Under the pieces are notes generated by a model. That model was not told the origin of the DNA, did no database searches, and worked only from the letters and a program-made list of their open reading frames with translations. A stretch of 37,147 nt of DNA from Desulfuromonadales bacterium (lineage in GTDB: Bacteria > Desulfobacterota > Desulfuromonadia > Desulfuromonadales > BM103), in NCBI GenBank assembly GCA_030614505.1, contig JAUWTX010000001.1, forward strand, positions 1 to 37,147, in the 5' to 3' direction. The position numbers were made by a program, and so were the translations under genes. Positions 1-24,400 of the stretch are shown here, piece by piece; position 1 is the stretch's first letter, and the number at the start of each line of letters is the position of its first letter.

Positions 1-1
1 A

Positions 2-460
2 GATGGTAATGCCCTCAGCGAAGTTAGCCAGACCATCAGCCTGATATGTGATGGCGCCCTCGGCCAGACCGATGATGTAAATTTCAGTATCAAGCAGGGC
101 TTCACCGGTAACATCATGCTGCATCTCGCCACGATCCGCTGCGGTGGTGAAGGTGTCGGTGATCAGAACATCATCGTCACCTATGGTGGCCGACTCGTCA
201 CTGATCATCAGCTTGTGGCGACCCGTCCCAACGTCGATGTTGAGCATGCCGTCAACATCATTCAGATGACCGCGCAGGAAGTCCGTATCGGTCTCAAGAT
301 CAAAATTGGCTGTCGAGGAGATATAGACTCGCTCATCACCATCATGCAGGTTGAGGTTGGTAATTGCCGAAGTGCCCTGAACGTTGAAGACATCATCACC
401 AGAACCAAGATCGATGTTGAGAATCTTGATGCCGTAGTAGTTGATGCCATTGATCCGGGT
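2..460 (-). other. Beta-helix spine segment (degenerate RTX-like rungs), C-terminal-most part visible
   Basis: GINYYGIKILNIDLGSGDDVFNVQGTSAITNLNLHDGDERVYISS...LNDVDGMLNIDVGTGRHKLMISDE; same rung grammar as 9420-9830 and 24100-24850. Confidence 0.75.
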
Positions 461-3400
461 CTCGACGGTGGCCGTATCTGGCTCGATGATGTAACTGGCT
501 TCTTCGGCGGTCAGATTGATCGTGACCGTAAACTTGTTACCAGCAAGGCTCTCGATGATCAGCAGGGTGCCATCAGTCCAGGCCGTGTACTCCGGAGCAC
601 CGAAAGTATTGATCTGGTCGGCAAGGGCGGCTGCCACTGCAAACGGCGTGTCACCATCCTCAACGGTGTAGGTATATCCAGCCGCAAGACCGGTGACCTC
701 GGTCTCATCATTCGTCAGCGTGATCGTCCAGACATCACCGTCAACCGGTAGACCGTAAGGCGTAACAGTCAAGACCGTGTCAAAGACCGCACCGGAAAGG
801 CTGGTGATCAGAATCGTATCGCCATCAGTCATCGCAACATAATCAGACAGAGCGACATCATTGTTAATCATGACAGCCAGAGCAACCGCGATTTCATCGA
901 GAGTATCGATGGTACCGTCGGCATCACTTGCTATGTAACCATAAGTGGTCGCAAAGTCATCGTTGAGTACAATCGTCCACACCTCGCCAGCCAGAGGAGT
1001 GCCACTCAGATCGACAGATGTGGAACGGGCAGAAGTTTCATCAATAACGGCAGTTCCTGTACCGCAGATATTGATATCAGTAAAGAACATGGCACCCGCT
1101 GTGTTGGCGACAATCAGCGTACCGCCATCTGAGGTTGCCACGAAACCAGCTCCTGCCTGTTGATAGACGATTGCAGCCAACTGCGCAGCAACAACAGCAG
1201 CAGTTTCTCCACCATCAGCATTGTAAACAAATTCGATCTGGTTGCCACCGATGATCAGAGTAAGCGTGTAAATATCGTCTGCAGCAGCGGTGCCACTGAG
1301 GGTAATCATTGTGGTTGTCGTCGTAGCGGCATCAATCGCGGCATCACCATCGGTTACACCGCTGATAGCGACCGTTACAGTGCGTGCAGTTCCTTCCAAA
1401 TTCACCGTATTGATGTCATGAATTGAGAGGTCAGCGCAGGCACCCTGAAAGGTGATCTGGAAGACGTTGTCAAACTTGCTGACGGCAACGTTGTCAGTGT
1501 AAGGCCGTGACGGAATACGGGTCTCACGATCAAAGTCAGGATTGATATCAATCGTCGAGCCGTTCGGGTTGAAAAGTTTACTGAGAGCCTTGTAGAAATC
1601 CAGAGCGGTTGCATCGTAAGCAATGTTGTTAGTCGTCACCAAGACCAGTTCACCTTCTGCGTTCTCAAGCAGGAAACTCAGTGTGAAGTAGCCACCGGTG
1701 GCTTCAACAGCAACCGTTTGTACATTGTTCAGACCGACATTGAAAGAGCCGTCCTGAATCGTAGTGATGAGAACATCGGCAGAGGCTCCAGCAGTTGGCA
1801 ACAACCCTGTCGTGATCTGGTTTTCATTCCAGATAATTTCATCGAAGTCTTCACCAGCCTGGTCACGAACAAACTTGAAGGTGTAGGTGACGTTGCCAAT
1901 ACCGACCTCGGCCTCAACTTCAATATCTTCAAATCCGTAGAGAATCCGCAAGCGCTTCTCCACATCATCGGCACTCAGACCATAATCAAGCGTAGTAAAG
2001 GCTTTGCCAGCCAGTCGTGTGACGTCCTGAGACAACAGCGTAGTATTGAACTCGTTACCGGCACGGTTGGTGATGATCAGTAAAGCACCCTCGGTCCAGG
2101 CCGTGAAGTCTTCGGTATCAGTGCTGATCTCTGCTGCGAACCAGACAGCCACCTCTGCGAGCGTTTCATCGACGATAGTCAGTGTCCGGAACTGGTCATC
2201 AATGACCAGCGTCCAGTCTTCTCCTGCTACCGGTGTGCCACTGAGTTGGACCTTGGTTGTAGTTGCCGTTGTTGCATCAATGGCGAAAAAGCGTGGCGGT
2301 GTCATTTCTACGACAACCTCAAGATTACGATCCAGGCGATCGGTGACAACCAGGGCTGCGCCTTCGGCAGCAACCGTGATCCCAACAAGACCATCACCCG
2401 CGATCAGGCCAGCCAGCGTTGCCGCAACAGTAGAGAGACTGTCGCCCGACATAACGGTGTAGATGTACTCATAGGTATCATCATCAACTGTCAGCCACAC
2501 TGTCCAGACCTGGCCAACCCGCATTGTTGCGCCAAGATTGGCAATGACCGTTGCGCCACTGTCAGGATCAATGACCGTCACTTCACCACGACCTGCAGGT
2601 CGCTGCACCGGCTCGATGGCAGAAACAACCGTAAACAAGGTCCCATTGCGGCTGACGATCACGAGGATTGCATCTTCAGCCAGACCAACCAGAGTGGCCA
2701 GGCCGGATGCAGTAATCTGGGCTGCCAGAGACGAGGCGATATTGCCCAGGACTTCACCTTCTTCAACAATATGTGTAACAGTCAAAGTCGTACCATCAAT
2801 GGTGATTGCGAGTGACCATGCTTCGCCAACCGCGGGTGTCCCTGTCAGATCAACCTGTTGCTTAGCTGCAGTTTCTGCATTGATCAACATCTGGCCACGA
2901 GTGGTGCCATCCGGGCGGGCGATATCATACGCCAAGGCGAAACTGGTGTAGCCCATACCGAGAACAATCAGGGTTTCTCCTTCTGTAGTGACCACGATCC
3001 CCGAGAGGTTCACAAGAGCAGCCATGCTTGCAGCAATCGTCTCAAGGGTATCAGTGCCAGTGACCAGGTGACTGTAGGCATGAATTTCCCCACCTGTGTT
3101 AACCAGCAGGTACCAGGTATCACCGACAACCAATGTTCCTGAGAGAGTCGCAAGGATCGCGGCCGGTTCAGGCGCAACAGTACCGGCACCGGACGGCTCA
3201 ACTACGAAGGCTGGCTCGTCCACGTCGAATACCACACCAGCGCGGTTGATGATCAGCAGGTCATCCATTGCGGCAATGGCGGTGTAGTCATACGGGATCC
3301 TGATATTTGATGTGCCGGCACCGGAGCTGATTGATAAGGAAACAACCACAAACTCACCGGAGAAAGCCCCGATACGCAGCACAGCATCTTCGACCTCGGC

Positions 3401-6400
3401 CTTGACGTCAGTCAGATCTTCTTCAGTCGTATAGTTGTTGACCAGCTCCGCCAGTGCTGCAGCGATTTCATTAAGAGTACTCTCAGCATCGGTCCTGACC
3501 GTGTAGTTTTTACCGTCAACAGTGAGTGTCCAGTCTTCATCGGCTGCGATCGTACCACCCAGAGTAATCTCCGCGCTCCAGTCATCGGCGCTAATCAGGT
3601 CGGCCAGGAGAGCAACGATATCCGCGATTTCGTCGACAGTCTCAGTCCCTTCAACAGAGTAGGTGTGACCATCAAGAGTTACGGTCCAGAACTCACCCGG
3701 ATTAACGGTGCCGAGGAGGATGGTTTTCTTGCCAGTTGTAATCAAGGCAGAAACATCAGCGGTGCTGGCTTCAGAAGCATCGACAACCGGGGTTCCCGTC
3801 ACATTAAAGAGGATCAGATCAGCAGCCTCAGCCACGGCAACAAGACCTGTTGTGCCGGTTTCGAGGTTGACCAGAATGGCCAATGCGGCAGCAATATCTG
3901 AAGCTGTCTGGCCATCTGTCACCAGATGGATGTAATCGCTGCCATTGACAGTGAGAGTCCATGATTGACCGGCAATCGGCGTGCGAGTCAGAGATAGTTG
4001 CGAAGCCGATGTCGTCAGGCTCGAATCGGTGTCGTCGAGCGGAGTAACAACGCCACTGAGTGTAATCGCGGTCGTGCCGAGAATGGACAGAATGTCACCG
4101 CGTGCTACCGCCGTGAAAGTTCCAACTGCATTGATCTCATCTGCTAGTTGTGCCGCAAGGTAAGCCAGGCTGTCTCGACGATCCACGGCAAACTCACATA
4201 GAGTCTCGCTGTCGGCCGGCGTAATCACGGTACTGATGGTCAGCGGCGCACTGTTCAACTTCGAGATCGTCAAAGTTCCGCCATCTGCTGTTGCCATGTA
4301 GTCAGAATCAGCGTCAATCGCTGCAGCCAGGGCCGCCGCAATCTCAGCCAGGGTGTCGAGTGTCGTGTCTTCATCACTGGCTTCATGCTCGTAGATCGTA
4401 CCGTCCAGTGTTATCGCCCAAATTTCCTCAACAGTGACTGTACCGGAAAGGGACACCATTGCTGAAACCACCGTAGCCGCATAGGTCGTACCGCCAAGAG
4501 TGAGTTCCCAGCTATCCGTCGGCACAGCAAGACCTGTGAACTGAACGGTATTAGCGTCTGTCGACTCGGTTGAAGTCACTTCGACAGGAGCGTAAGCAGT
4601 GGCAACCAAAGAGCTGACAGAAAAAAGATCGTTCATCAGACTGATGATGAACAGCATGTCATCCACAACCAGGGCTGCGAAGTCAGAAGCCTCAGAATCA
4701 TCAAAAATTTCATCAGCAAACCACCCGGCAACCATGGCTGCCGAATCGCCGGTTGAAAAACTGTGGCTATACTCGAGGAACTGAGCTTCACCATCGAGAT
4801 TGATGAAAGTGATGGTCAAAGTCCAAAGCTCTCCGTCTAACCTTGCCCCGATTGGAGTTGCCGCAGCAGCCCTGGCTTCGTTGTGTTCGAAGTCGCCGGA
4901 AACAACGGCCATGGGATCGCCTGCACCATCAGTAATCGAAACACCGAGATAGAAATCAGAGGCACTGAGGCTGACGATAAGGAGGAGATCTCCTTCAGCC
5001 ATGGCAACAAAATCTGTAGCATCGCCATCTGCGTTAATCTCGGCAGCAAGAGCAGTTACAATCGCAGCATGCGTATCGCCGGACGATACGAAAATTTCGT
5101 AAGTAAGTATTGTCGCCGGCGCATCCTCTACAGGAATGGTGATGGTGACTTCCCAGGTTTCGCCAACTGCCAGAGCACGGACCAGGCGCAAGGTCGTCGC
5201 CGACTGGATATCGAAGTTGCCGCTCGGCGTAATCTCGAGAGTTGCACTAAAGGCCGTGCCCGTCCGGTTGATTATCAAAACATTATCGCCAACGGCAAGC
5301 GCCAGGAAACCAGCGGAAGCATCGGCCTGAATCGCTTCAGCCAGGGCCGTGGCAATATCAGCCAAAACATCACCATCGGCAACGAGATAACTGAAGGTTT
5401 GCGTAACTGTTATGAACTCTTCATTGAGCGCGTCATATTGCTCAATCGCAAATTCAATGATCCAGGACTCACCTGCCACTGGCGTTTCGACCAAAGCAAC
5501 GGTGGCATTCTGTGCATAATTTGCCGCTTCGATCACGCCTTCAGCATCGCCAGCGAGTGTCAGCGAGAATGTTTCCGCTGCCGGATTCGCAACAATCAGC
5601 CTGGGCCCCTGAGGAGACGCCACAAATCCACCACCGACCTGTACCGCCAGACCCTCGGAAACTTCAGCAAACGTATCGCCGGCCACGATCTTAACTACAC
5701 CATCAGTTGCCGGAGTCGTCATGGTCATTGATCCGCCGATACCATCAATATCAATACGGGTGATTCCAACCTGAGCAGCAAACACAGCCGCGACATCATT
5801 GCTGACGGTCAGCGTCTTGCCATCCGCCACGGCAGTGTAACCGGCAATTGAAGTGTTGATGATCACTGCCATTGCTGCACTGACCTGCTCAGCAGTCAGA
5901 ACCTCGGTCAGCAAGATGGCGGGGATATCATCATCAACGGTGTCGTAGTAGTCACCAATGGTAACGCTGATGGAAGGAAGCCCTGCGAGCATCAGGTTCC
6001 AGGTGTCACCTACGGTCGGAGTCCCACCCATGGTGATCACAGCTTCATCATCAGGAACCGGTGTGATCGTAACGTTGACCGAGAATGCGTCATTAAGAGT
6101 GTTCGCAATGTACAGAGCAATGTGCTCGTTGGAATCCTCGTCAATCGTTATCACAACAGAGGCAACAAAGTCAGTGGCATCATCGTTAACCGCCTGGGCA
6201 AAAGCACCGGCAAGGTTTTCCACGGTCAGTACGGTAGTCGTGATGCCGCCAACCGGATAGTTATCACCAATCACGATCTCGTAGGTGCCGATGCCATCAA
6301 TGGTCAGTGACCAGATCTCTCCATCCGCCGGGTCGCCGTAGAAGGAGATATTCGCCCACGACTGGACCACATAATCATACTGAGTACCAGCAACAACGAT

Positions 6401-9400
6401 TGACCAGGTTCCGCCGGCAACAGGAGTACCGGTAAAGGTGATGGTCGCCGTAACCGGCAGGGTAACAAACAGGTTGGCTGGCAGCACCGTGACCGTCGGT
6501 ATAAAGATTGTGTTGGCACGATTGACGATATAGAGGGTATCACCGGAGGCCACGGCAGTGTAATCCGTTGCGCCTGCATCATCGGCATTGATGGCGATTG
6601 CCAGGGCAGTTGCGATATCAGCCAAAACGTCACCTTCGGCGGCCTCATACGTATAGCTCAGAGTAGCGAAGCTCACCGACCAGGCTTCACCAGGACCGGC
6701 GTTGCCAATCAGGGTAACAGACTTTGCATAGGTGGATACATCAATTGCGCTACCTGCTGAACCAGCATCATCACCATCCGGGCCGATAGTCACAGCGGTT
6801 GCGAATGTGGCGTTGTCACGGTTGACGATAACGAGAGTATTGCCTTCAACTGCAACGGAGAATTCAACAGCATCCGAGTCTTCGTTGATGGCTTTGGCAA
6901 AGAACTCGGCGATATCGGCCAAAGTATCAAGCGAACCCGTGGCAACAGCACCTTCAACAGTCGAATCATCAGGATCGGTACCTTCCGCAATACTCCAGCT
7001 CGTTGAGAAGATGGCTGGATTCTCAACCAGAACGGTTGCGCCATCCGCTGTCGCTGTGAAACCGGTGCCGGCGTTATTGATTGCCTCGGCCAGGGCTGCT
7101 GCAAGCTCAGGAAGCTCATCAACCGGAATAGTGATGTCGCCGACGTCGTAAGAGGCTCCAATTATAAAGACATAGCTGACGACTGCCCCGTCGTTCAGCG
7201 TAAAGGACCAGACTTCACCAGTCTTCACCGGGCCAAGAAGAGTAAAGATGGTGCCTGTAAGGCCAACCTGGAAAGTGTAGGTTGTACTCGGATCGCCATC
7301 AAGAACGAGAGCCCAGGTATCGTTATTGATCGGCACGCCGCCCAGGGTCACAATTCTTGTCGTCACATCTGAGGTTGTAGCATCAACGACAGTGGTCGGG
7401 GTCACTACCAGGGCCGCGGTAAAGTCACCACCGTCACGGTCAACGATCAGGAGTGAATCACCGGACACAACGGCAGTAAAGATGGTGTCCTCAACGTTAA
7501 TCAGGTCCGCCAGGCCCTGAGCGATTTCTGCAAGAGTATCGACTCCGCCAGTATCACTGACTGTATGACCGTAGGTCGTACCGGCATTATCGTTGAGTAC
7601 GATTGTCCAGACCTCACTGACAAGTGGCGTCCCGCTCAAGCCGACATGGACGGTCGTTGCACCGGAATCATTAGTAACAAAACCCGCAGGATCCCCGTCG
7701 GCCTGGGTCATGGCGAAGGTAGCGGTAAAAGTAGCACCAGCCCGGTTAATGATGATCAGGGCATCAAGAGCTGCAGCGGCTGTAAAATATTCGGCATTGA
7801 TATCATCAGCGTTGATGAGTGCAGCCAACGCCTCGGCAATTTCTTTGAGAGTATCGACGCTGCCATCGGCATCGCTGACTTCATAAGCATAAGTGGTGTC
7901 AGTATTACCATTGAGAGCGATCGTCCAAATTTCTCCGGCCACAGGATCGCCACTGAGCGTGGCAACGGTCGTTGTCGGCCCTGCACCATCATCTATGGTT
8001 ATTTCACCGTCCGTATCGGCAACGAGAAGACCCGAACCTGCCAGAGCAATGCTGAACGTTGTCGTGAAGTCGACGCCATTCCGGTTGACGATAACCAATG
8101 CACTTCCGTCGGTTACAACTGTGAAATCAGCAGCAGCGGTATCGGTATTGATCAGATCAGCCAAGGCAGTTGCGATCTCTTCCAGAGTGTCTGTTGTACC
8201 AGTTATAAAGACATTGTAGTCTTTGCCATTGAGACTGACCGTCCAGGTATCACCAACAATGGGTGTGCCGCTCAGTTGAACGGTGGTTGTCGTGACGCCG
8301 GTATCGGTGAGATACGGCAGGATCTCAAAATCGACAGCAAAGATGCCAGAAGAAATCTTGGTGATTGTGATTGCACTGGCAACAACTTCGACCATCCAGT
8401 TGTCATCAAGATGCACGTCAAGTTTCTGGGCAATCGCTTCAGCAATATCACCTGCGATCTCACCACCGGACGTCACCACATACTCAAAGCTTGTGGTCTG
8501 ACCACCGATGGTCAGTAACAGTTGCCAGATTTCGTTTGTCGTTGCGTTTCCGCCCAAAGTCACTCGCCAGGTTTCTTCTTCTACGGCCTCGTCATTCTCA
8601 GTCACATATTCAACGGTAAAAAGACCACCGAGGGTCGCAGGCGCCGGCGCCACAGCCAGTTCGGTTGATAAATCAGCGCCGTCAAGGTTGACGATCACCA
8701 AGGTGTTGCCATCGACCGTGGCCGTGAATCCGGCATGGTCGTTATCGACACCAAAGGAGCTGTTGTTGATCTTCTCGGCCAGTTCATCAGCAATATCACC
8801 CAAAGAGTGACCAGAAACCGTGACCAGGACGGATTCCGACTGATCGCCAATACCCAGGGTGAGTGTCCAGATGTCACCGTCTTCCGGCGTATCACTGAGA
8901 TCGATCAGTGTCGTGGTCGCTGTATCCGGGTCGATATGATCGTCTACGATCAGTAATTGATAAGTCCCTGAAGCGGCCTGGACATAGACGGTCTGGATTT
9001 CGGAAACGGTCGGCATATCAAGACCGGTCAGGGTCCGTTCGGTGAGCGTGCCGGTATTCGGATCAATTTCACCGCTGTCATCAACATTCAGCACGTCACC
9101 AGGACGGACTATGTGTGTGAATACCCGATCACCGGACAAATCTGTCAGTGTCACAAACCATTCTTCGCCAGAAGCGGGATCACCGGTGAGGGTGATTGTA
9201 ATTGACGTTGCACTGGTGTCCGGGTTGACACTGGAACCACCGGCTGTTTCAGCACTTCCTGCCGCTGTGATATTGAATGCCGCTTCAAACGCAGTACTGT
9301 TCGAAATTGTCAGCACAGCACCCGTAGCAGTAGCAGAGTAACCTGCTGTCACCGCATCAAGATCAATGTTGATCAGATATGCCAGCGCCTCGGCAATCTG

Positions 9401-12400: not shown

Positions 12401-15400
12401 GTTCCAGCCTTTCCCGTTTACCGTTGTTGAACTGGAGAAAAGCACGCTGTAATTATCCTGTTTCGGTGTGCCGTTGAGGATGATTCCTGCACTAGCGGCA
12501 TCGGTGGTATCAAAGCTGACCTTGAAGGTACTCGTACCATCAGCGGCCCAGATGCGGATCTTGGCGTTGCCGAGGATATCGACCAGTGCTTCGGCCCGAT
12601 AGGTTGTGGTAGTGTCGGTGATCATTGTGCCATTGATCTGTGCAGCCAGTTCCCTGGCAATCTTCGAAAGCGCCTTACTCTCTGCCGTAACGTCGAAGGT
12701 AAACGATTGCGAGACACCACCATCCAGGTCGATCTTCCAAATATCTTCCTGGTATGCGGAGCCGGTAAGGCTCACTACGACTTCGTGCCATTCCAGATTC
12801 GGATTCAGCGTGGTAATCACCGTGGTCTCTGTCAGCTCGGGGGCACCGCTGAAGACAACCTGGCCGGAGGGAGCACTGCCGTCGATCGTCAGGTCGACAT
12901 TGAAGGGATCAACGTTGCTGATCGAGAGAATCTCTTTGGAGACCGATTCAACATCAAGGAAAGTGTCGATTCCCGGGCCATCAAGGAAAGTAAACTCGAA
13001 CGGGAAGCCGTTCATGCGCGGATCGAATCCCGGCCGCTCGCCGTAGATGCCGCTGAAGTGGAAGGCTTCGTCGTCTGTGATCACCCCGTTACCTTCCAGG
13101 TTGGTGCTTGTGGAAGTCAATGTCCCATCGGACTGGCGCTTGTTGGTTTCTTCCGGCAAACGGAACGGATCGTTGAGGAAACGCTCTTCACCGACCAAAG
13201 CACCGCCCTGGATGGTCAACGGACCGCGAATGGCATTGACACGTTCCTCGAATTCCGGGAAGACCAGTGCGTCACTACCGTCGATAACATCATCATCAAT
13301 CGCCATGACGGTGACGATCTGCGGATCGCTCCAGTTTGAATCATCAAAAACTAGCTGCGGGGTGATTACAGCGCTGCCAAGGCTGTCAGGGCTTATGGTG
13401 ACAACTGCGTCGATATCCCAGGTTTGTGACAAAGTGGCATTGCTGATGGTCAGTACGCGACCGCGCAGAATGACATCGTACTTGTTTGTTGCAAGCAGTT
13501 TATCAGCCAGAATACTGGCAATTGTGGAGAGATCGTCCCTGAACTCGGTGGTGTAATTGACAGAAACAATGGCATCCGTATCAGCACCGAGATCGCTGAG
13601 GCTTAACGTCCAGAGTTCACCTGTAGCCACCTGACCGGTCAGTTCCACGGCCACGCTCTGGAAAAGATCGCTCTCGTCATGGGTGACTTCAACAGTGGCA
13701 CCACCGGCGGTATCCGGGGTAATGGCGAAGCCTGTGAAAAAGGCTGTGTCGGAAATTATGGTCAGCGGGATACCGATATAAGCGTCGCCGTCACCGGTGA
13801 AGGCCAGGGTAAAATCGTTGCCGAGGGTACTGGTGATGGTAATCGTATCGCCTTCGGCAACTGCTATGAAGTTAGCAAGTTCGTTGGTGCCGAAATGTGC
13901 ATTGATGCTGACTGCGAGTTCAGTAGCCACCTGCGCCAAGGTGTCATGCAGTTGTACCGTGTAACTGTGCGTGCTCAACGGATTCACACCATCATTGAGC
14001 GTGATCGTCCAGGTTTCTCCGGCTACCGGCGGACAGCTCAGCATGATTGAGCGGGTCGTCCCTTCAGTTGCCACAGTGTAGCCGATATCTGAAATACTGG
14101 CCCGCAGGGCGTCAGCCACATCCTGAAGCGTATCGTTTGCCAACACCTGGTAAACAAAGACGTCATTATTTGTCGCATCGTAGTTGGCCGCCACCAGAAC
14201 ACCACGACTATCGGTCGAGGCACCTTTAAGGGAACCGTCCGCCAGGTCAGCGAGGACCTTCTGCAACAGGGCATCGGTGCTTATGGTGGTGTTGACTTCG
14301 CCAGTCACGCTATCAATTCCGCCGAGAGTGACAATCCAGTATTCGCCGTTACTGACATTAACGGCGCCTATCAACTCAAGGATAGCGCGATCTGTCGCCG
14401 TGCGGACCTGAAGATCGCGGGTCTCACCAAAAGCGGCATCCGGGTTGAAAGCTTCGTCTGCATTGTAAGTACGGGTCAGTGCCGGCACCACGTCGACGAT
14501 GACGGTTGCGCCGGAATCAGGCTTGGCAGTCAAGACTACGGTATAGGTATCGGTGAGTGGTACTTCATCAAGTTCCATAGCATAGAGGGGATTACCAGCT
14601 TCATCAATCGGCTCCAGTGAGAGGAGCGAAGTAATTTCGTAACGGCTGTCAGTCTCCGGCAGGAATTCCCAATCATTCAGCGGCGTCAGGGTATATGCGC
14701 TGGTCTGAGAATCATACTCGGTAATCACGGCAACCTGACCCTTACCGTCCTCCTCAACAATAGTGAGAACCTTGTCCTTCAGCTCAATGGCGTTCAGATT
14801 GGTATCGTGCCGCTGAATCGAAGTGATCAATCGATACTGAAGCTCCGGGTAGACTGCTGAACGCTTGGAGCTGAAGTTCCAGAAGGAGATTGATGATTCG
14901 TAAACAAAAACCGAAGTCACCCGAATCCGGAATTCGGCAGAGTTTTCAATGCCCAGATCTCCATCGGTAAAGGTGTATTCAAGGAACGGATCAAAGAAGG
15001 TTTCGCTGCCTTTGTCGATCGGTGAGGTGGCGTCACGGGTGCCATCACCGTACCAGTTGCCGGCTATGACATTCCAGTTTGAGCCGACATACTGCTGCAA
15101 TTCGAGTGCAGGGGCGACCGTGATATTGGCCGTATCCAGAATCCGTTGGCCATACGCGTCATGCTGGCCGGTAAAGAATTCGTAGCTGTATTCAAGCAGG
15201 GTGCTGTGATCAATATCAAAAACAACGTGAACGGTGCTGTTGCTGGCGGCGCCAAAGGTGAAGGTATCCCTGCCGTTAGTAATTTCATCAACGATCGTCA
15301 CCGAGGATCCGGCTGCAAATGCATTGTAAGCGGCTTCGTTATCAATAACGTTGGCAATCCGGCTGGCGACGAAAGCCATGGTCAAGGTATCGTCCACCTG

Positions 15401-18400
15401 AAGTTTGTAAGTGTAAGACTTGCCGGACTGAACGATATCGACGCCATTCAAGGTAATCAGCCACTCATCACCAACACTCGGCGTTACTTCGCCATCAAGC
15501 ACGTACTCGACCCAATCGTAGCGTATGGCCGGGGCCGCCGAGTTTTGATTACTCAGAGCATAAGGCTGGAGCCTGGTTTGTTTGAAATCGGAAACATACC
15601 AGGCATCATCCACGATCACGGTTAAGCCGGAGGCATAAGCGTAACTTTGAACACCTGTTTCGCCATCAATTTTGTTGATTCCGTCATTAATAGCCGCGGC
15701 CAGGAATTGGGCCAGTGCGTTCGTGCCGAAGAAGGAACCCAACTCACTACCAACAGTATATTCAAAGGCACCGGTCTGCCCGCCGTTGGTCAGAATAAAC
15801 TTCCAAACGTCATGGATGGTGTTGGCATAAGCATCGTTGACAGGAAGAATGACTTTGACGACAGTTTGAACCGGCTTGCCTTTAACCAGTGCGGTCCCTT
15901 CGGGAATCGTCGTATTGGTGACACCATCACCAGAGACGCTGACGGCGAAGTCGATGTTGTCCAACCTGTAGACAAACAATTGGCCGCTATGAATTAAGGT
16001 GTTCGCTATTGCCGTATAAGAGCTACCGACCTCAGACTTGAGACCAGGGACAAGGTTCCCGTCGATTGTATAAATTGTCGTCCCCAGCTCAGTTGAATAG
16101 GTGACATCAATCGTCGCATTCGCAACAAGATCAAAGCTCCAGCTTTCACCTTCCGCAACCGGCCCGGTCAATGTGACGATTGCCGCCTTGACTGCACTGT
16201 CAATATTGCCACCGGAAACACTGATATCATGACGAGTTTCCTTCATAGTCACGGTGCCGACATTGCTGTCATCGTCTTTTGTAATCACCAGTTTTTCGGA
16301 GACAATAGAAGCATTATAAGACGTGGAATGCGGTGCCGTATTGATTGCTGCTGCAATGGCAGATTTGGTACCACTCATGGTACTGGCGACATTAGCAGTT
16401 ATCGAAATGCCAGCGATGGTGACAGTCCATTGGTTTGCAACGACAGAAGTGCCATCCAACTCATCCAGAGTTACGGTAACTGTCTTACCGCCAGCAGTGG
16501 TAACGATGTTGCTGCCGCTGACGGAAACGTCGTTGCGGCTTTCTGTCAGGTCAGAAGTGAAGGCCGTCGTGCTGCTGTTGACAATCAGTAAAGTATCCGT
16601 TGCAGTATCGTAGGTCGCCGTGTAAGTTTCCTCGACATTAATCTGAGCGACGAGCAGTGCAGCAGTGTTATCCCGTGAAGTAATAAAGTTCTGGGTAAAA
16701 TCCAAGACCCCGGGGAGAACCAGCGTCCACTCATCAGGAGAAGAACCATCGCCGGAACGACCAAGTTCAACGAGACTCAGCGTTGCCGCAGCATAGGTGC
16801 TGCTACCAGAGATTGAGCTATCCGTATGAGGCTCTGCCTTGGTAATACTGAAGCCACTCACCTGAGCACCGACGACATCCGCACCATAGAATGTCAATGT
16901 GTTTAATGGCGAGTCGACAATGATACTCAAACCACCGACCTTGCTTTCGAAATCACTTTCAAGGCCATTGGCGATCTGAGTCAGGCCGTCGTTGTAATCA
17001 GCTTTATATGTTGCCGTAATGCCCGCGACAGTGATGGACCAGACTTCATTCTCGTGGACATCTCCGGTCGTTCCCGTCCCAAGGGTGATCTCAAGTTTTT
17101 CGGTCGTACTGGCTGCATTCCAGGCGATCAGCTTGGTCTGGTCAGTGAGATCGGCAACAAGTGGCTGGCTGGAAGGTGTGGCATTGTCTATGATGGCACT
17201 GCCCTGCGGGGCATCTCCTTCGACCGAAACTTCAACGGTGAACCCGGCAGTTCCGGAAGCGGTGATCGTAAGCGTTGTTCCGGAACGACTGATAGTCAGG
17301 TTGTTTAGTTCCGGCGCGGAGCTTGCGTTAAACGCTGCAACCAGTTTGTTCGCAACGCTGTCCGGATTGTCAGAACCTGAGAGGGGCTGGAGATCAATCC
17401 CGTTAATTGTCAGAACCCAGTTGTCAGCGAAGACGGTTGTTCCCGTCAGAGTAACGTCAACACGGGCGAACTCAATTGGTTGCAGCCCTGAATCTTGAGC
17501 AAAGATCGAACGTTTGATGCTGGCGGCATCCTCAAGCTGCTGCTGCAATGGCCCCTCAGAATTGGCCCCCTTGAGAGTAAAGCCGGCCGTTTTTTGAATA
17601 CGCAGGCTGGTGGTGGATGTTGGCTGACTAATCGTGTAACCGGAAACGGTAGCATCGCCTTCGATAGCGAGTTCTAAGGCATCGACAACGGCAGCCAGGC
17701 TCGTTTTATCGGTGACCAGATAATCACGGTAGCCAATGCCCAGCAACCATTCATCAGAGGAATTTACCTGATCGGCAACCAGGGTCAGCGTAATATCGGT
17801 GTAGTAGATATTGCCATCAACCAGAGAATCGCCAAGTATCGTATCGGGAGAAGTCAGCATCTCGCGATTGATGATGAAGGAGTAGGTATCAGGACTGTAG
17901 GTGCTGTCTTCGGGATCGGCACTCTGTATCACCGTATAGGGTGTAGTGTAGTTAGTGGTGCCATCGAAACCAAGATCGGTATTGCCAACTTCCGGATCAT
18001 AGAAGGTGTAAAAATTATCACCATTCTGGTCGGTGGTCTCGTTATCAGGATCAAGTTCCTGGGCAGTATCGTTCCGGTCTTCATCCTCCAGAACAGGATC
18101 AGGGGCAAAAAGGAAAGAGTCTTCTGCATGTTCTTCAATTGAGATGTGCAGTTGGTAGTCGGCACCTTCGGGAACCCCGTCAACGTTATCCGGATAGATT
18201 GATGTCACCTCAATGAAATAAACACCGGACTGCTCGAAGTTGTATTCGAGATAATCATCCCAGAAAAGCGGGCTGCCCGGATCTCGAGTCGGCCACTGGA
18301 AGCCTGATCCGGAGGTGATTAATGAGGGAGTCTTCGGCTCTTCCGGATTCAGTGGTTCTGTGATCTCCCAGAGTCTCAGCCAGGCTGACCAGAAAAAGCT

Positions 18401-21400
18401 GTCGCCCAGATCAAGGCCATGGTCTATATCAAAGACGACCCGAAGTCCTTCAAAGTCTGAGAGATCGCCATCCGCCGCTACAAAGCTCTCCTGTGCGGCC
18501 AGAATCATCTCACCAGTGATTTCGAATTGATAGAAGTCTGCATTGCCGTCGCCCGTACCGAGGATCGTCAGGTGCGGCAGTTCGGTTGCCAGGGTGATAT
18601 TCGGATTGGCGTTGGTGTTCCACTTGCTGGTGTCGATATCCTGGGCATTGAAGACAGAATCGTGGATGCCGACTTCACGAGCCACCGAAGTGCCAAAGTC
18701 TCCAATGAACTTGATCAGGTTGGCATTGACGGCATCGGCCAAAGCAGCGCCAACTTCTGCCAAGGTATCGACGGTGCCGTCGGCATCACTGACCGCATAG
18801 CTGTAGGTTCTGAAATCGGAATCAATTGCAAGAGTGACCTTCCAGACTTCACCAACGGCCGGAACGCCATGCAACGGAATATCGACAACGCTGCCAGGTG
18901 TTGCCGGAAGCGTAATCGGGAACGAGTAGGTGGTCGTAAAGTCACCTGTGCCGGATTTATTAACGATAATCGTCGAATTGATGAGCACAGCACTGAAGCC
19001 CGTAGCACTGCCGTCTGTATTGTCCGTATTAACCTTACCCGCCAATATTTCTGCAACCGTATCGGTTGTATCGGTCGCACCAATCACATACTCGTAGGTC
19101 AGATTGGCAACTTTCAGAGTGACAATTTTGCCTGTTTCCGGCAGGTTGCTGATTCTGGTAACAGTTCCCGTGCCAACGACGTGAGTTCCGTTGCTCTCAT
19201 AGCTGTAGCCCCAGCTAAAGATGCTATTGAAAAAGAACTCGCCGATCGGAGTAATGTTAAAGCTGGTACTAAAGTCGCCGCCCGTAAGGTTTTCGATAAT
19301 CAGCGTCAAACCAGATGCCGAGGCTTCATAGTTGTAAGCATAAGGATTGTTGTTGATGGCACTGGCCAGAGCTTCCACAATTTTTACCAGGCTATTGACG
19401 GCACCACCGACTGTGACGGAGTTGCTCAGTCCGTCGTAAGTAACTGTCCAGATCTCGCCATATTTGATCGTCCCACCTAATACAACTGAAGTAACACTCG
19501 CATCAGAGGTGGTTTCAACAATAGCCGAGACGGCAGTGAAAGGAGCATCTGTGTTGTTGACTATCTTGACAGTAGCCAGATCGTTTATTTCAGTAGCAAG
19601 CGCCAAAATCACGTCAGAGAGAAGGTTGCCGGACTCCACCAGATAGCTGTAGAGGCTGGTTTCCCCTTCAGTGGTCAACTCAATCTCCCAGAGCTGCCCG
19701 GGGATTACGGACTGACTGCCAAGATTGAGGGTCGACTTGATACCGGCACTCGGTGCATCGCTGATAACAGACGAACCAGCGATGTTGACGGTTACACTGA
19801 AATCAGTGTTGATGCCGACTCCTGTAGAGCGGTTGGTAATTTCCAGGCTGTCCTCTGCTGCTATCGCCGTGTAGGTGGTCACGATAGGTGCGTTGTAATC
19901 TATATTCCCGCCACTACTGTTGACGGTAAGGACCAGGGTAAATGGTGCGCCAGTGATACCAAAGAAGATCTCGTCACTTCTGACCAGTAAGGTATCCGGC
20001 AGGGTCGGATCCTCTTGCAGTGCAATATTCCAACTGAGATAGGTCGGGTCTTCGGCAGCTAACGTACCCGAACTATCCTGGTTGATATAAGCGGCTTTGT
20101 CGATCAGGGTGTTCAGAATATCGCCAAGACTCTCACCATTCGTCACGAAATGGGTGGCTTTATAAGTAATCGGTTCCGGCACGCCACCGTCGTTGTTCAG
20201 AACAGTCAAAATGACTGTCCAGGTTTCACCATCGCCCGGGACACCAGTCAGGCGGAGACGGGCTTCATCGGTGGAGCTCAGGAAGCCTGAGCCAAGCAAC
20301 ACGGTTTCGGTCGGCTCGACCACCGTAGTGGAATCACCGGATTGCAGGATCAGGACACCAGGCGCATCGTTATCAATGATGCGGACATCATGGGAATCAG
20401 GCCGAATCACTTCACGATTGGCGCCAGCGGTATAGTCAGCAGACCGCCCATATAGAGTCAGCGTCCAGGAAACGCCCTCTACGATCATGTCGGCAGTCGC
20501 ACTCAAGGAAAGAACCCGCTTGGCCCAATAAGTCGGATCGCTGCTCTCGGTAGAGTGAGACGATAAGTCATCTACTGTACCACCCGTCGGCAATTCGCCA
20601 ACCTGAGACGCATTGTCGGCACGCGTGACATACACTGTAAACGGACTGCCATCAAGTGAGGTAACCACGAGAGAGTCACCAGTCGAGGACGTCGCTTCAC
20701 CAGAGACCGCGGCGCTACTCTGTGTGTTGATACCGACAACGTTAATCTCAATGGTGAAAAGTGAACCATCATCAGCGGCCAGATGAATTGTCTCGCCGAG
20801 GACCCCCGAATCCAGGTTGGAAACACCGGTGAAGTTGTCCTCCGCAGCAATGATTGCGGCAAGGCTGCTTGCGATATCTATCAGCGTTCCACCACTGGGA
20901 ACCGTGTAAGTTGTTCCCAAAGTAACGCCATTCAAAGTAACGGACCAAACATCGTCCTTGAGTTGTGTGCCAGTGATCTCCGCGTCGGCACTGAGATAGC
21001 TGGCAATAAAAAGATTACTATCCAGATTGATGGCATCGGCCAGGCCATCAGCCACATCACTCAGGGTTTCCGTGTCAGCGAGAACGTAGGAGAATTCTTC
21101 GCCATTGAGGATCACCGTCCAGACGGCACCAATCGCCGTTGCAGGACCACTCGTTACCGCCCCCATGAGTTGAATCTCTGCAGAAGTCCATGCCGGTTCA
21201 CTCTGATCATTGTCAAAGGTAACGTCTGCCATGGTGCCGGTATTCACAGCGCTGCCGTTCGACTCACCCGTGGCTGCAAAAGATACAGTAAGTAACCCGG
21301 CGCCGCTGAATGCGAGCACATCATCATCGTCAGCATCCGGGCTGTCAATAGTGTATCCGGCGTCAGTCAGTTGTTCTTGTAGGGCATTGACAACATCAAA

Positions 21401-24400
21401 CAAGGCATCACCGTATTGAACGGAATGAACAAACGCGACTCTATTCACAATCAGTACCCAGTTCTCACCCACCTGCGGCGTTCCGGAAAAAGTAACAACT
21501 GCGTTCGTAAAAGGAGCGCTCATTGCAGCATCAAAAGCATTGCCATCTATAACAAGGGAAGTGTTTGAAGTGGAGCTAAATCTAACGCCACTGACGTAGT
21601 CATTGCCTTCAGTATCCTTGCCGTCCGGGGCGTTGATTCCAACGGGAGCAACGGTGATTCGGATGGCGAAGATCGTCCCTTCAGCAGCCGTCACACGAAT
21701 GACACTTCCTATACCTGAACCGTTAAGTACCGTATCTGCTGTAACGTTTGCCTCAGCAGAGATAAGTCCGGCCAGGGTGCTTGCGATATTTGTCACGCTT
21801 TCCCCATATAGCACAGTGTACGCATCCACTTCGGTTCCATTGAGGAAGACTCTCCAAAGATCACCAGCAACGGGAACCCCGATAACTTCAATGTCAACAG
21901 CGGTATATTGGACGGAAGCATCCCGTTTTTGTTCGAGATCGCCATTGACCTTGGCAGCGAGGCCGTTGGTCACATCATCAACTGTAACTCCCAGAAACTC
22001 ATCCAGTGTGCTCTCGTCAACTTCGTGGTTGATCCGCGAGTAATGGGTGGCTTCCTTGTCGAAATCTTCTTCCGCTGCGATCGTGATTGATACCGGGATA
22101 TTCCAGTTGTCGGCATTGAAGCTTACCGAGTCCTGCGAACCGGTATTGCCGGCGCCACTGATTGAAATGACCCGCAACTGGCCATCTTCGCTCAGCCCGT
22201 CACTACCGATGTTGGTCAGATTAACAACGACCGTCCCTGTCGGAGCTTTGGTGAGAACAATCCGGTAAACATCCTGCAGCAAGGCCACCGGGGCCGGGTC
22301 GCTGTTCAGGCCGCCTTCAGCAACCAGCGTGTCATATTCGTTCGGGAAATCGGCAATCCCGGCATCATCATTGATCGGAGCGATCAAAACCGAGGCAGAA
22401 TCATCATCAACGACTTCGACCACGACACCGAGAGCAATCAGACCATCATACGCATCGCCATCCTTCGGACTGCTACCCTGAGTCACCTTGTGCTGGATGT
22501 TTATGTTGCGGATACCTTCGGCCAGCATGTCATCCGGGGCCGTGACCGTAATCATTTGCGGGATGAACCAGTTGGTGCGGGTGAAAAGTAACGAAACGCC
22601 ATCGACACTGCCATTCAGCGCGATGCCCTCACCACCGGCGCGCTGCTCGCTTTCACGCAGAGAGACCGGAGAAGCTGACACCAGCACGTTATCTTCCGGC
22701 GCACGGGTCAGAACGACCATGTATGTATTAAAAATCAAGCCCGCATCAGCCAGGGGGTCCTCAAAGACTCGCAACGGCCCCTGGTTCAGCAAGACGACGA
22801 TACCGGCCTCATCATTATCGGCAACATTCGCCGAAATATCCTGGACATAAACATTCTGGTAATCAGGATCGTCGCTGCCGACGGTGTTTATGATCAGACC
22901 GCTGTGACCCTCCAGATTGTTACTGACCACGGTGACTGCTTCACCGTTGCTACCACCAACGTGGAAGGTATCGCTACCTAGGCCGCCGACCACTTCCAGG
23001 GCCACATCTTTGCTGGTGCTTTCGATGAAAAAGCGGTCGTTGCCCTCAATGGCATCAACAACAATCTTTTCCAGGCCGGTATAGGTAACAAAGAGACCTG
23101 CACCGTAGACACCCTGGTCGCTGATGACGAAATCGTCACCGAATTCAGTGCCAATCACAGTCAGGGTGTCGAAACCATCACCGCCATCAATGCGTACCGG
23201 AGCATTAACAGTGAAGGAGATGAAGTCAGCTCCCTGGCCGCCGTTGATATTGGTGTAAGGCGCCTTCGGATCATTCGGGTCAACCTTGACAAAAGCCCGC
23301 ACGGTAAAAGTATCATCGTCCTCATCGCCGAAGAGGAAAAGCTCTGCCTTGTTGCTATAGACCGTAAAGTTGTCGTTGCCGACACCACCGAAGAGGGTGG
23401 TGTTTTCACTGATGCCGTTGCTCAGGAAGCCGCGGGTGATCTGGGTAGTTTCGAAGTAGTCTTCCTCGGCCAGACCGTTGTCCGGGTTGCTGCCGTCGCG
23501 CGCAGAGAGGAAGACCTGACCGATCTGAAAGGTATCGTTACCGGCATCACCGAAGATTACAGTTGGCGAGAGATTATCGTCGAGAACGAAGGTGTCATTG
23601 CCATCACGGCCGTAAATTTCGATGGCCCCGTTGATGTCGCCATCATAATTGATCCGTTCGATGACGCCGCCCTGCACCGGCTCACGATTCTCGTCAACCT
23701 CAATGGCCGCAACCATGCCCTGGCCGATATCCTGGTTGGCCCGCAACAGGAAGAAATCGGTCTCGTTGGTGCCATAGATGCGCAAACGATCGATGCCCGT
23801 ATCACCTCTGGATTCGTCAAACACGTTGATGCGTGAGGAAATTCCACCGGCCAGGCCGATATCGTACTTGTCGCTGCCTTGCTGGCCGTGCAGGGTCAAT
23901 TCACCATCAATGCCACTGACAAAAGTCTGGTCCTCGTTTTTATCGTAATTAACACGAACGATGTCGTTGCCATCACCCATATCAATCGTCGTGGTGCCGG
24001 ATATGCTGTTAATATTGATGACGTCGTTGGTGCCATTGATGAGGGGCGTCTCGTCACCGGTATCAATCTGTGTCACAGCTTCGTGGGTGGAATCAATATA
24101 CAGGCCATTGTCATTATTACTCAGCCAGAGAGTCAGCAGTTCGAAGCCCTGATATTCGATCCCCAGGATCATGCCGAGACCGACAATTTCATCAGACCTG
24201 AGCTCACCATTCTCTGCGGTGCCATCGCCGCTGTCATAAACCTTCAGGTAATCGTGACTACCCTCTTCATCAACAACGATAAGCCTGGCTTCGATGGCAT
24301 TTAAAGAGCTGCCGAACGCATCAATAGCACCAAGAATCTGGCCAACGTGCGCCGTGGTGTTACCGACACGAACGATATCGCTGCCGCCACCGGTCTCGAC

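Follow-up and report, generated by a model that had tools for sequence, protein, structure and literature searches.

Split and recursively nested host domains suggest a branched architecture for a giant RTX-repeat protein

Results

Organization of the open reading frame

Contig JAUWTX010000001.1 (C124) of the Desulfuromonadales assembly GCA_030614505.1 consists of 37,147 nucleotides, which were analysed in full and are referred to as the window, and contains a single open reading frame on the minus strand, which encodes 12,382 amino acids (aa) without a stop and is open at both ends (Table 1). The frame appears to represent the middle of a giant protein with RTX-type repeats, whose beta-roll is interrupted by large insertions. 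Residue i begins at window base 37147-3(i-1). Since aa 2-5370 align with residues 3135-8613 of a homologue of 19,202 aa (G061) at 54% identity, the N-terminus is likely short by about 3,100 aa. A first-pass annotation of the sequence had described a recursive insertion of at least four levels; profiles, homologue slots and structure models now suggest it to be deeper, with at least eight levels predicted.

The beta-roll contains nine GGxGxD motifs before the first large insertion and scores 52.5 bits against the Pfam family HemolysinCabind (PF00353, cut-off 23) in one of 25 pieces in which the frame was scanned. HemolysinCabind was the only Pfam family above its cut-off in these pieces and no NCBIfam family exceeded its cut-off in 18 pieces. 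The Calx-beta family PF03160 had no match in the 25 pieces at an E-value of 0.01, and PPC or DVUA0089 matched in neither set. A profile check of the domains named earlier has thus recovered HemolysinCabind and neither Calx-beta nor PPC/DVUA0089. All host domains are consequently defined by profiles built in this analysis, and their nesting has escaped Pfam and NCBIfam because the hosts are in pieces.

The motif GGLGSDTFHVG begins at aa 4721 (22,987) and VNAIRGPLTIQGG, where the spine had been proposed to resume, at aa 7970 (13,240). A profile of eight insert-free homologues matches aa 4661-4740 at its positions 1-80 (independent E-value (iE) 1.5e-27) and aa 7953-7998 at positions 76-120 (iE 3.5e-4), which confirms the proposed interruption, with beta-roll on both sides of a gap of 3,249 aa. 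For a comparison of this first slot, homologues were collected with the conserved 261 aa preceding it, which yielded 120 proteins and 160 loci from many phyla and several cultured strains as judged by their record titles. With the best 80 taken per collection, the sample is skewed towards sequences like the window, and it is cut at about 3,370 aa. This anchor was located in 110 of the 120 proteins, 21 of which reach the resuming motif, with a gap of 16-33 aa in six and 289-820 aa in the remainder. Among 162 frames (the loci, L002 and the window), 148 were anchored and 119 reached the motif. In 118 homologues the slot holds 32-33 aa (2), 417-895 aa (38), 1,089-1,114 aa (5) or 1,422-3,309 aa (73).

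Split host domains in the first nest

A Calx-like profile trained without the window detects two near-complete copies and four pieces. In profile-profile comparisons of 35 pairs, the pieces of the third domain (Calx 3) tile the intact Calx-like profile without overlap, with strand A at positions 1-18 (probability 77.2), strands B-C at 24-45 (95.8), D-E at 69-96 (98.5) and F-G at 97-127 (90.9). The halves of the second PPC-like domain (PPC2) tile the intact PPC1 at 17-66 and 73-169 (98.7 and 99.4), in line with the earlier view that PPC2 holds an array of a repeat termed A. The C-terminal part of the small beta module 1 matches at 18-65 (99.4), and 27 of the 35 pairs stay at or below 1.3. Its short N-terminal piece, with a probability of 0.5, is not significant, and the beta-module level is for this reason not shown by profile. 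In two homologues (P0050, P0051) one intact PPC-like domain was seen by eye between both parts of the module, which likely encloses both PPC-like domains in the window. Scored singly, pieces of the window are weak (Calx 3 F-G iE 0.062, strand A 0.039, PPC2 N-half 0.39), and they hold only at the level of the family.

Calx 3 is circularly permuted, as its F-G piece precedes the others in the chain, 3,200 aa ahead of D-E, with Calx 1 and Calx 2 located in the link of the permuted domain. The F-G block is present in 117 of 119 rows and missing only in two insert-free rows. The first-pass annotation had assigned both PPC-like domains and the beta module to the interior of Calx 3, and this nesting is retained, with the amendments that Calx 3 is distributed over four permuted pieces and that the beta module likely surrounds the PPC-like domains.

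Insert-free forms were found at four of the five slots measured, the beta-roll slot and three Calx slots. The Calx 2 F-G loop comprises 533 aa in the window vs 3-23 in insert-free homologues (6-13 in L060, L162 and L150), the Calx 3 A-B loop 1,907 aa vs about 0 in L112, L137 and L032, and the Calx 3 C-D loop 345 aa vs about 1 in L060 and L062; the picking of block distances gave negative or cross-copy values in some rows and figures are quoted from named rows only. As far as sequence comparison can tell, we regard it as established that the hosts are split into complementary pieces, that insert-free and part-filled homologues exist and that Calx 3 is permuted in its order.

The class of insert changes four times on the tree compared to 38 times after shuffling (115 rows). 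Stepwise growth of the insert along the tree was considered and is not shown; both rows without insert are placed within the Calx-only group, where they may reflect losses. Five Rhodobacterales (L032, L026, L030, L036, L038) carry repeat A in two Calx loops and no beta-module/PPC branch (gap -5). Their anchor groups with the deep forms, with p 0.216 in the approximately unbiased test for loss of the PPC branch under a midpoint root, and a clean loss of this branch is possible.

Structurally, an intact Calx-like domain aligns with 2dpk (NCX CBD1; Z 9.4, root mean square deviation (rmsd) 3.6, 114 residues, 17% identity) and with PapD-like chains (Z 10-11), which suggests that these domains are Ig-like and that 'Calx-like' is a label of convenience. 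PPC1, in the model of homologue L060, has the fold of the ColG collagen-binding domain (5iku, Z 12.5, rmsd 2.3, 114 residues, 25% identity).

Repeat A and predicted structures

Repeat A is present in 60 copies at iE<1e-3. The proposal that its copies hold other copies is borne out by five that are split in this manner; two are circularly permuted, one alone inside a beta-roll rung. In one homologue (P0038) the Calx 2 slot holds a single permuted copy. No Pfam family exceeded its cut-off in 19 copies, the protein atlas returned no result and phrog_165 matched in one of six copies scanned. In the PDB, a profile of 19 window copies matched four phage tail chains (E-values 4.8e-5 to 0.034) in addition to a flagellar hook-associated protein. 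The fold is that of the domain inserted in tail sheaths (9cb9, 9khy, 8kee) and T7-like nozzles (8i4m), with a match to 9cuy of Z 9.6 (rmsd 1.8, 78 residues, 27% identity), and was also matched in flagellar FliD and FliC. Repeat A is a phage tail-sheath-type inserted domain. As to sheath core domains, no sheath family was found by Pfam over the whole frame, and matches are limited to chain residues about 85-180.

Structures were predicted for two natural homologue stretches, in both of which split halves are modelled as single domains. The 752-aa stretch of L162, comprising beta-roll and a minimal 422-aa Calx insert (50 rows), was modelled with a predicted local distance difference test (pLDDT) score of 87.6 and a predicted template modelling (pTM) score of 0.87. 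RTX beta-roll chains align across its insert (203 residues, rmsd 4.0, range 1..704; only about 140 residues precede the insert) and the fold of CyaA RTX is matched at Z 10.9. The 1,080-aa stretch of L060 (51 rows; pLDDT 82.4, pTM 0.59) contains two small-domain matches of wide range, 1..1080 (81 residues, rmsd 2.7, Z 7.1) and 19..984 (71 residues, rmsd 2.3, Z 7.3), which, with rmsd values of 2.3-2.9, are consistent with a reassembled Calx 3 and beta module. The models thus predict that the beta-roll continues across the insert, that beta module and Calx 3 reassemble and that the three Calx-like domains close a loop resembling a ring, since the last of them is completed by the F-G strands located at the beginning. 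Sheath or nozzle chains match L060 at 315..684 (78 residues, rmsd 1.8, Z 9.6) and 406..594 (87 residues, rmsd 2.2, Z 11.2); a range of 313..684 was also matched, and one chain matches 299..779. These ranges suggest that an A core combines with a distant strand, 100-300 residues downstream in many rows. For the window itself, the assembly of Calx 3, beta module and PPC2 would follow from profiles and these homologue models.

The L060 ranges served to predict, before any run, a zipper in the A array of PPC2. The lead strand was expected to pair with the last copy, the strand ahead of the last copy with the first copy, and further layers to continue in this manner towards the interior. The outgoing leg (aa 6432-6782) and the returning leg (aa 6970-7305), both free of PPC residues, were modelled as two chains with 68-row alignments. 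The score of 0.63 compares to 0.00 for the best of three controls; among solved pairs 116 of 157 reached the mark, as did two of 215 mismatched pairs, a rough calibration with alignments built in this analysis. At least 52% of contacts are common to the runs, which give 294-379 contacts and a partner pLDDT of at least 66. In line with the prediction, the lowest-error pairs position aa 7190-7198 between two strands of the first A copy, the first (aa 6453-6457) and the sixth (aa 6534-6538). Further interfaces (aa 6436-6445 with 7207-7217 and 7291-7300; aa 6539-6551 with 7092-7103; aa 6558-6562 and 6645-6658 with 7082-7091) appear to fit three more layers, with a pairing that is our reading. Covariation between the halves of the array (68 rows, effective 62) was at the level of noise, and we know of no solved complex of this zipper kind, the single domain having been solved in phage tails. 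In light of the models, an out-and-back zipper in the PPC2 array is highly probable. Nesting would then reach eight levels or more (four A layers within PPC2, which lies in turn within the beta module, Calx 3 and the beta-roll), and about twelve if the zipper reaches the tip. Models and zipper test thereby support the earlier proposal of a stem with side branches in place of a linear adhesin, which the refuting checks set along with it did not overturn.

Later nests, assembly and genomic context

Three more large nests follow the first (aa 8079-9088, 9244-9350 and 9406-12215). The slot of the second nest in Table 1 (beta module 2) holds 42-50 aa in nine of 71 rows, 81-250 in 34 and more than 250 in 28. 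The halves of module B in the third nest of Table 1 match its profile at 1-27 and 20-76 (iE 5.5e-4 and 2.3e-6). In G061, equal later slots hold about 3,050 and 3,190 aa.

Table 1. Features of the window in the order of the encoded chain.
Feature	Position	Strand	Basis or remark
Single open frame	2..37147	-	12,382 aa, C124; about 3,100 aa missing N-terminally vs G061
RTX-like beta-roll before first large nest, level 1 host	22916..26560	-	nine GGxGxD, PF00353
Calx 3 strands F-G, first in chain (aa 4745-4779)	22811..22915	-	profile 97-127
Calx-like domain 1, intact (aa 4780-4917)	22397..22810	-	iE 2.8e-40
Calx-like domain 2, strands A-F (aa 4918-5053)	21989..22396	-	profile
Permuted repeat A (helix half first) with further A copies, in Calx 2	20399..21988	-	A-in-A 20,633-21,136
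Calx-like domain 2, closing strand G	20360..20398	-	homologue gaps
Calx 3 strand A (aa 5597-5615), level 2 host	20303..20359	-	profile 1-18
Beta module 1, N-terminal piece, putative level 3 host	20264..20302	-	boundary by eye; P0050, P0051, L060 model
Repeat A array from beta-module piece to PPC1, 518 aa	18710..20263	-	absent in e.g. P0019, L060
PPC-like domain 1, intact, collagen-binding-domain fold	18122..18667	-	profile, 5iku
PPC2 N-half (aa 6345-6432), level 4 host	17852..18115	-	profile-profile
Strand completing last A copy of PPC2 array (predicted)	17,813-17,842	-	model
Repeat A array in PPC2, 870 aa, about 8 copies	15242..17851	-	predicted zipper, levels 5-8 or more
Strand completing first A copy of PPC2 array (predicted)	15,554-15,580	-	model
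PPC2 C-half (aa 7303-7448)	14804..15241	-	profile, profile-profile
Small beta module 1, C-terminal part	14618..14794	-	profile 18-65, probability 99.4
Calx 3 strands B-C	14390..14560	-	profile 24-45
Repeat A array in second Calx 3 loop, 345 aa	13370..14389	-	vs L060, L062
Calx 3 strands D-E	13262..13369	-	profile 69-96
Beta-roll resumes, VNAIRGPLTIQGG	13133..13252	-	slot comparison, profile, model
Second nest: beta module 2 split around about 1,010 aa of repeat A	9818..13132	-	inner boundaries by eye
Single permuted repeat A in beta-roll rung	9098..9418	-	profile
Third nest: module B split (8,933-9,001; 1,778-2,011) around about 2,300 aa of repeat A	1778..9001	-	
A-in-A sites of third nest	6,791-7,351; 5,558-6,442; 4,067-4,546; 3,221-3,718	-	
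Intact module B and three A copies, inside third beta-roll slot	503..1729	-	
Beta-roll resumes (GINYYG), 2,861 aa after the rung is left; runs off contig	2..475	-	

At the DNA level, exact repeats of 20 bp or longer are absent from the window, and five weak self-matches were found. Contigs from four cold-seep runs (two studies), the best-matching of which may be the source sample, are collinear with the window without joints, none covering the whole stretch; two pieces of run X2 (1.2 and 1.7 kb) bridge the junctions around PPC2 and Calx 3. The window is not a repeat collapse. The bin comprises 2.15 Mb in 292 contigs. The anchor region has no match in 36 genomes of the same family and one in 24 other genomes of the order, and the nearest anchors, at 85-87% identity, are in Sulfuritalea and gammaproteobacterial records. 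Given the lack of matches in the family and the outlying composition of the contig, which ranks second of 74, its host is uncertain and transfer or mis-binning come into question. No RNA datasets carrying the window sequence were listed.

Five full-length homologues comprise 12,574-19,202 aa. Four start with a LEPR-XLL pattern, with 29.5 bits vs 17 for NF012209 in G064, the one scanned, and three contain HExxHxxGxxH motifs. A diverged second anchor copy (37-40%) lies upstream in the same frame in three (G062:C6:672,779-673,450; G064:C19:143,319-143,966; G065:C10:452,600-453,256), so that the beta-roll block appears to be duplicated. The neighbours in G064 encode TolC, two membrane fusion proteins (MFPs), a metalloprotease-MFP fusion and a SecA-like protein, with no ABC family among the five scanned. 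Three genes of a SecA_DEAD/M50/MFP module adjoin the giant gene in G061, G063, G064 and G065, whereas the listed neighbours in G062 include only the SecA-like one; two genes after the giant gene in the latter (G062:C6:692,146-699,127) look from their motif like a two-partner secretion pair. In the window's own bin, module genes (C254, C247), an HlyD above its cut-off (C237) and an LEPR-XLL N-terminal fragment of 878 aa without BLAST match to the five full-length homologues (C56) are all unlinked to the window. The giant proteins are candidate substrates of the SecA_DEAD/M50/HlyD export module.

The bin holds a second giant-protein fragment on C6 (4,561 aa, both ends open, HExxHxxGxxH at aa 837), which, being 38% identical to the window over aa 774-2047, is a paralogue and not the missing end. 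In the N-terminal part of the window, at 29,594-33,199 and 35,333-36,112 (aa 346-605, 1317-2518), another repeat occurs in 12 copies (YIDVTF...TFRY...GSW.D), in which copies without the last strand alternate with copies without the first, and which looks like it self-nests too. Long amphipathic beta-strand repeats without family match (26,900-29,700 and 33,200-37,147) are common to C6 and homologues. Elsewhere in the genome, C27 carries a polyketide-synthase-like pair, as seen by eye, and C61 and C200 unannotated long frames of 1,339 and 1,660 aa.

Discussion

The outer nesting can be taken as nearly certain. As a whole, we consider it probable that the window encodes the middle of a giant RTX-repeat protein, built as a stem with side arms, that is secreted and stabilized by calcium and serves as a branched adhesin or matrix scaffold, although for this function in itself the chances are about even. 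In the proposed assembly, the A array of PPC2 would fold back on itself as a hairpin stalk, with every core on one leg taking up a single strand from the opposite leg to become complete, and other A arrays may be built alike. In pili, donor-strand complementation supplies cores lacking one strand. Here, each six-strand core would wait for its donor strand, the longest wait, of about 3,200 residues, falling to the F-G strands of Calx 3. Because the halves are strictly nested, the innermost domain would complete first in either direction of export, and halves would close like brackets, last in first out, with the arm zipping back to the stem. The folding puzzle for vectorial secretion, which the first-pass annotation had raised, is real and would in this way become softer. 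Export may rely on an N-terminus with LEPR-XLL and on the SecA_DEAD/M50/MFP/TolC module that adjoins homologues, calcium would bind to RTX and acidic loops, and the arms could act as stiff spacers offering multivalent contact through PPC-like and sheath-type surfaces. The furthest-reaching version, in which every repeat array is a strand-zipped stalk, the PPC2 arm reaches about twelve levels, the ring latches the largest branch and an ABC-less SecA_DEAD export with folding from tips to stem operates across a widespread family of 12-19 thousand residues, we hold at slightly less than an even chance.

Several observations weigh against this interpretation. The structural support consists entirely of predictions, made with alignments of 50-68 rows. 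Ranges from the fold search are defined by their first and last residues alone, and the Z-scores of 7.1-7.3 for split hosts are in the range of common arrangements. The permuted Calx domain in the L162 model is covered by no listed fold match, and ring closure is thus judged by pTM and strand confidence. The zipper test covered one of about seven A arrays and is blind to the distinction between pairing within a chain and between copies. Insert-free homologues at the same loops, as had been anticipated, exist for the beta-roll and the three Calx slots and not for PPC2, where the smallest insert measures 468 aa (71 homologues with both blocks; 468-1,773 aa in 70 and one mis-pick). In contrast to RTX adhesins, the A stalks showed no distinct ligand-binding domain at their tips, and with both ends of the protein outside the window, signal, anchor and linkage to export genes are out of view.

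The stalk tips without a distinct binding domain make shielding the main rival. The branched architecture would be kept and about 60 phage-tail-type domains would act as steric shield or decoy, repelling phages and predators or soaking up tail parts. The likeness of repeat A to the inserted sheath domain by profile (four of five PDB matches) and fold, in stalks that end in repeat A, speaks for such a role; yet the equal fold in flagellar FliD and FliC suggests that repeat A could serve as a spacer that inserts into proteins in general, adhesion is favoured by the RTX repeats and the PPC-like collagen-binding folds, and no defence genes were seen, although no search was aimed at them. Overall, we find this function unlikely. 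It is distinctly less probable still that only the outer hosts are split, while A copies are local tandem beads and the depth of four to five levels stays within the known range. Most A copies do look like complete tandem units by sequence and the pTM of the L060 model is low, but in many rows the alignment with sheath domains combines an A core and a strand 100-300 residues further downstream, and the window halves are predicted to interact in nested register.

Slightly below this we place a pairing of halves between molecules, by domain swap in a cross-linked mesh, or a chain that is cut in export and assembles from pieces. It would agree with the success of two halves folded as separate chains, with the up to 3,200 residues between halves and with the membrane peptidase-like gene adjoining homologues and the HExxHxxGxxH motifs; however, the single-chain models close domains within one chain, where the inner partner would always be nearest in export, and the strict bracket order is required by pairing within a chain and needless for a mesh. 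An artefact of assembly or chance motif matches have a negligible probability as explanation. Despite a fragmented metagenome bin, the outlying composition of the contig and the lack of a run piece spanning the whole stretch, an artefact is already refuted for the main nest by an equal block order in more than 70 homologues, including cultured isolates, by the absence of exact repeats and of joints in the four runs and by a 37 kb frame without stop.

The nested architecture is a real, conserved, new and extreme variant of a known design, whose principle is already in print. The earlier remark that this architecture was not known to be described stands for its depth, size and permuted ring, on which no literature was found (with subscription papers and supplements outside the scope of the search), and not for nesting as such. 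RTX adhesins have split domains, with three levels in AhLap (beta-roll, vWFA and insert) as described in the accessible part of PMC12077191, and in AhLap, MpIBP and FrhA beta-roll and Ig-like split hosts bud other domains (PMC12077191; bioRxiv 10.1101/2025.09.30.679566, available text). As far as these sources extend, RTX adhesins carry single ligand-binding inserts (17-28 kDa in AhLap), whereas the window holds up to 3,249 aa, five domain types and a predicted depth of at least eight levels. It shares the GGxGxD beta-roll and split projecting domains with LapA/MpIBP-type adhesins; classical membership is not shown, and its homologues differ from RTX adhesins in the LEPR-XLL start and the SecA_DEAD module alongside. 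In the available part of a survey of 2.7 million domains, the deepest case named is Si3 of the cyanobacterial RNA polymerase beta-prime subunit with six levels, where one small domain nests in itself recursively and builds an elongated arm (PMC13114784). In the same part of the text, Si3 is cytoplasmic with 640-690 aa and inserts are smaller than their host in 77% of events; the window in contrast is of extracellular type, with several arms of 340-3,200 aa on mixed hosts, a predicted greater depth and a nested insert of about 25 times its host domain. Contractile tail sheath proteins are described with 'Russian doll' domains I-IV (PMC6088184, accessible portion). With sheath and nozzle proteins and the outer domains of flagellin and FliD, repeat A shares the fold of the inserted domain at weak sequence likeness; unlike sheath proteins, the window is without core domains and has 60 copies per chain, with predicted self-nesting by one-strand exchange.

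The homologues share with LEPR-XLL giants (NF012209) the N-terminal motif, the size and neighbouring TolC, MFP, M50-MFP and SecA_DEAD genes. The SecA_DEAD/M50/HlyD module of Kamneva et al. is without ABC transporter, and the available main text, supplements aside, names no giant substrate (PMC4452313). Chlorobium giant proteins are rich in hemagglutinin motifs, and 'nested', 'inserted' and 'Calx' are absent from the accessible text (bioRxiv 10.64898/2026.03.19.712371), as they are from bioRxiv 2023.11.21.568195; PMC11573180 and bioRxiv 2026.06.07.730766 contain none of the terms looked for.

The usual picture of a giant surface protein is a string of beads, whereas in this case a branched shape is indicated by the sequence and by three independent predictions, with bracket-like nesting predicted to be deeper than the six levels named as extreme in the 2026 survey. 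The series of homologues, from no insert to 3,300 aa, provides ready-made constructs to study how far-separated halves of exported proteins fold, and with cultured carriers such as Amphritea balenae, Rhodobacter flavimaris and Pseudaquabacterium inlustre, imaging and knockouts are feasible. The family also supplies named candidate substrates for an uncharacterised SecA_DEAD export module and may offer a natural strand-zipper for building branched proteins. If true, a whole tree in one chain would be a dendrimer of natural origin, nested more deeply than any architecture recorded so far.

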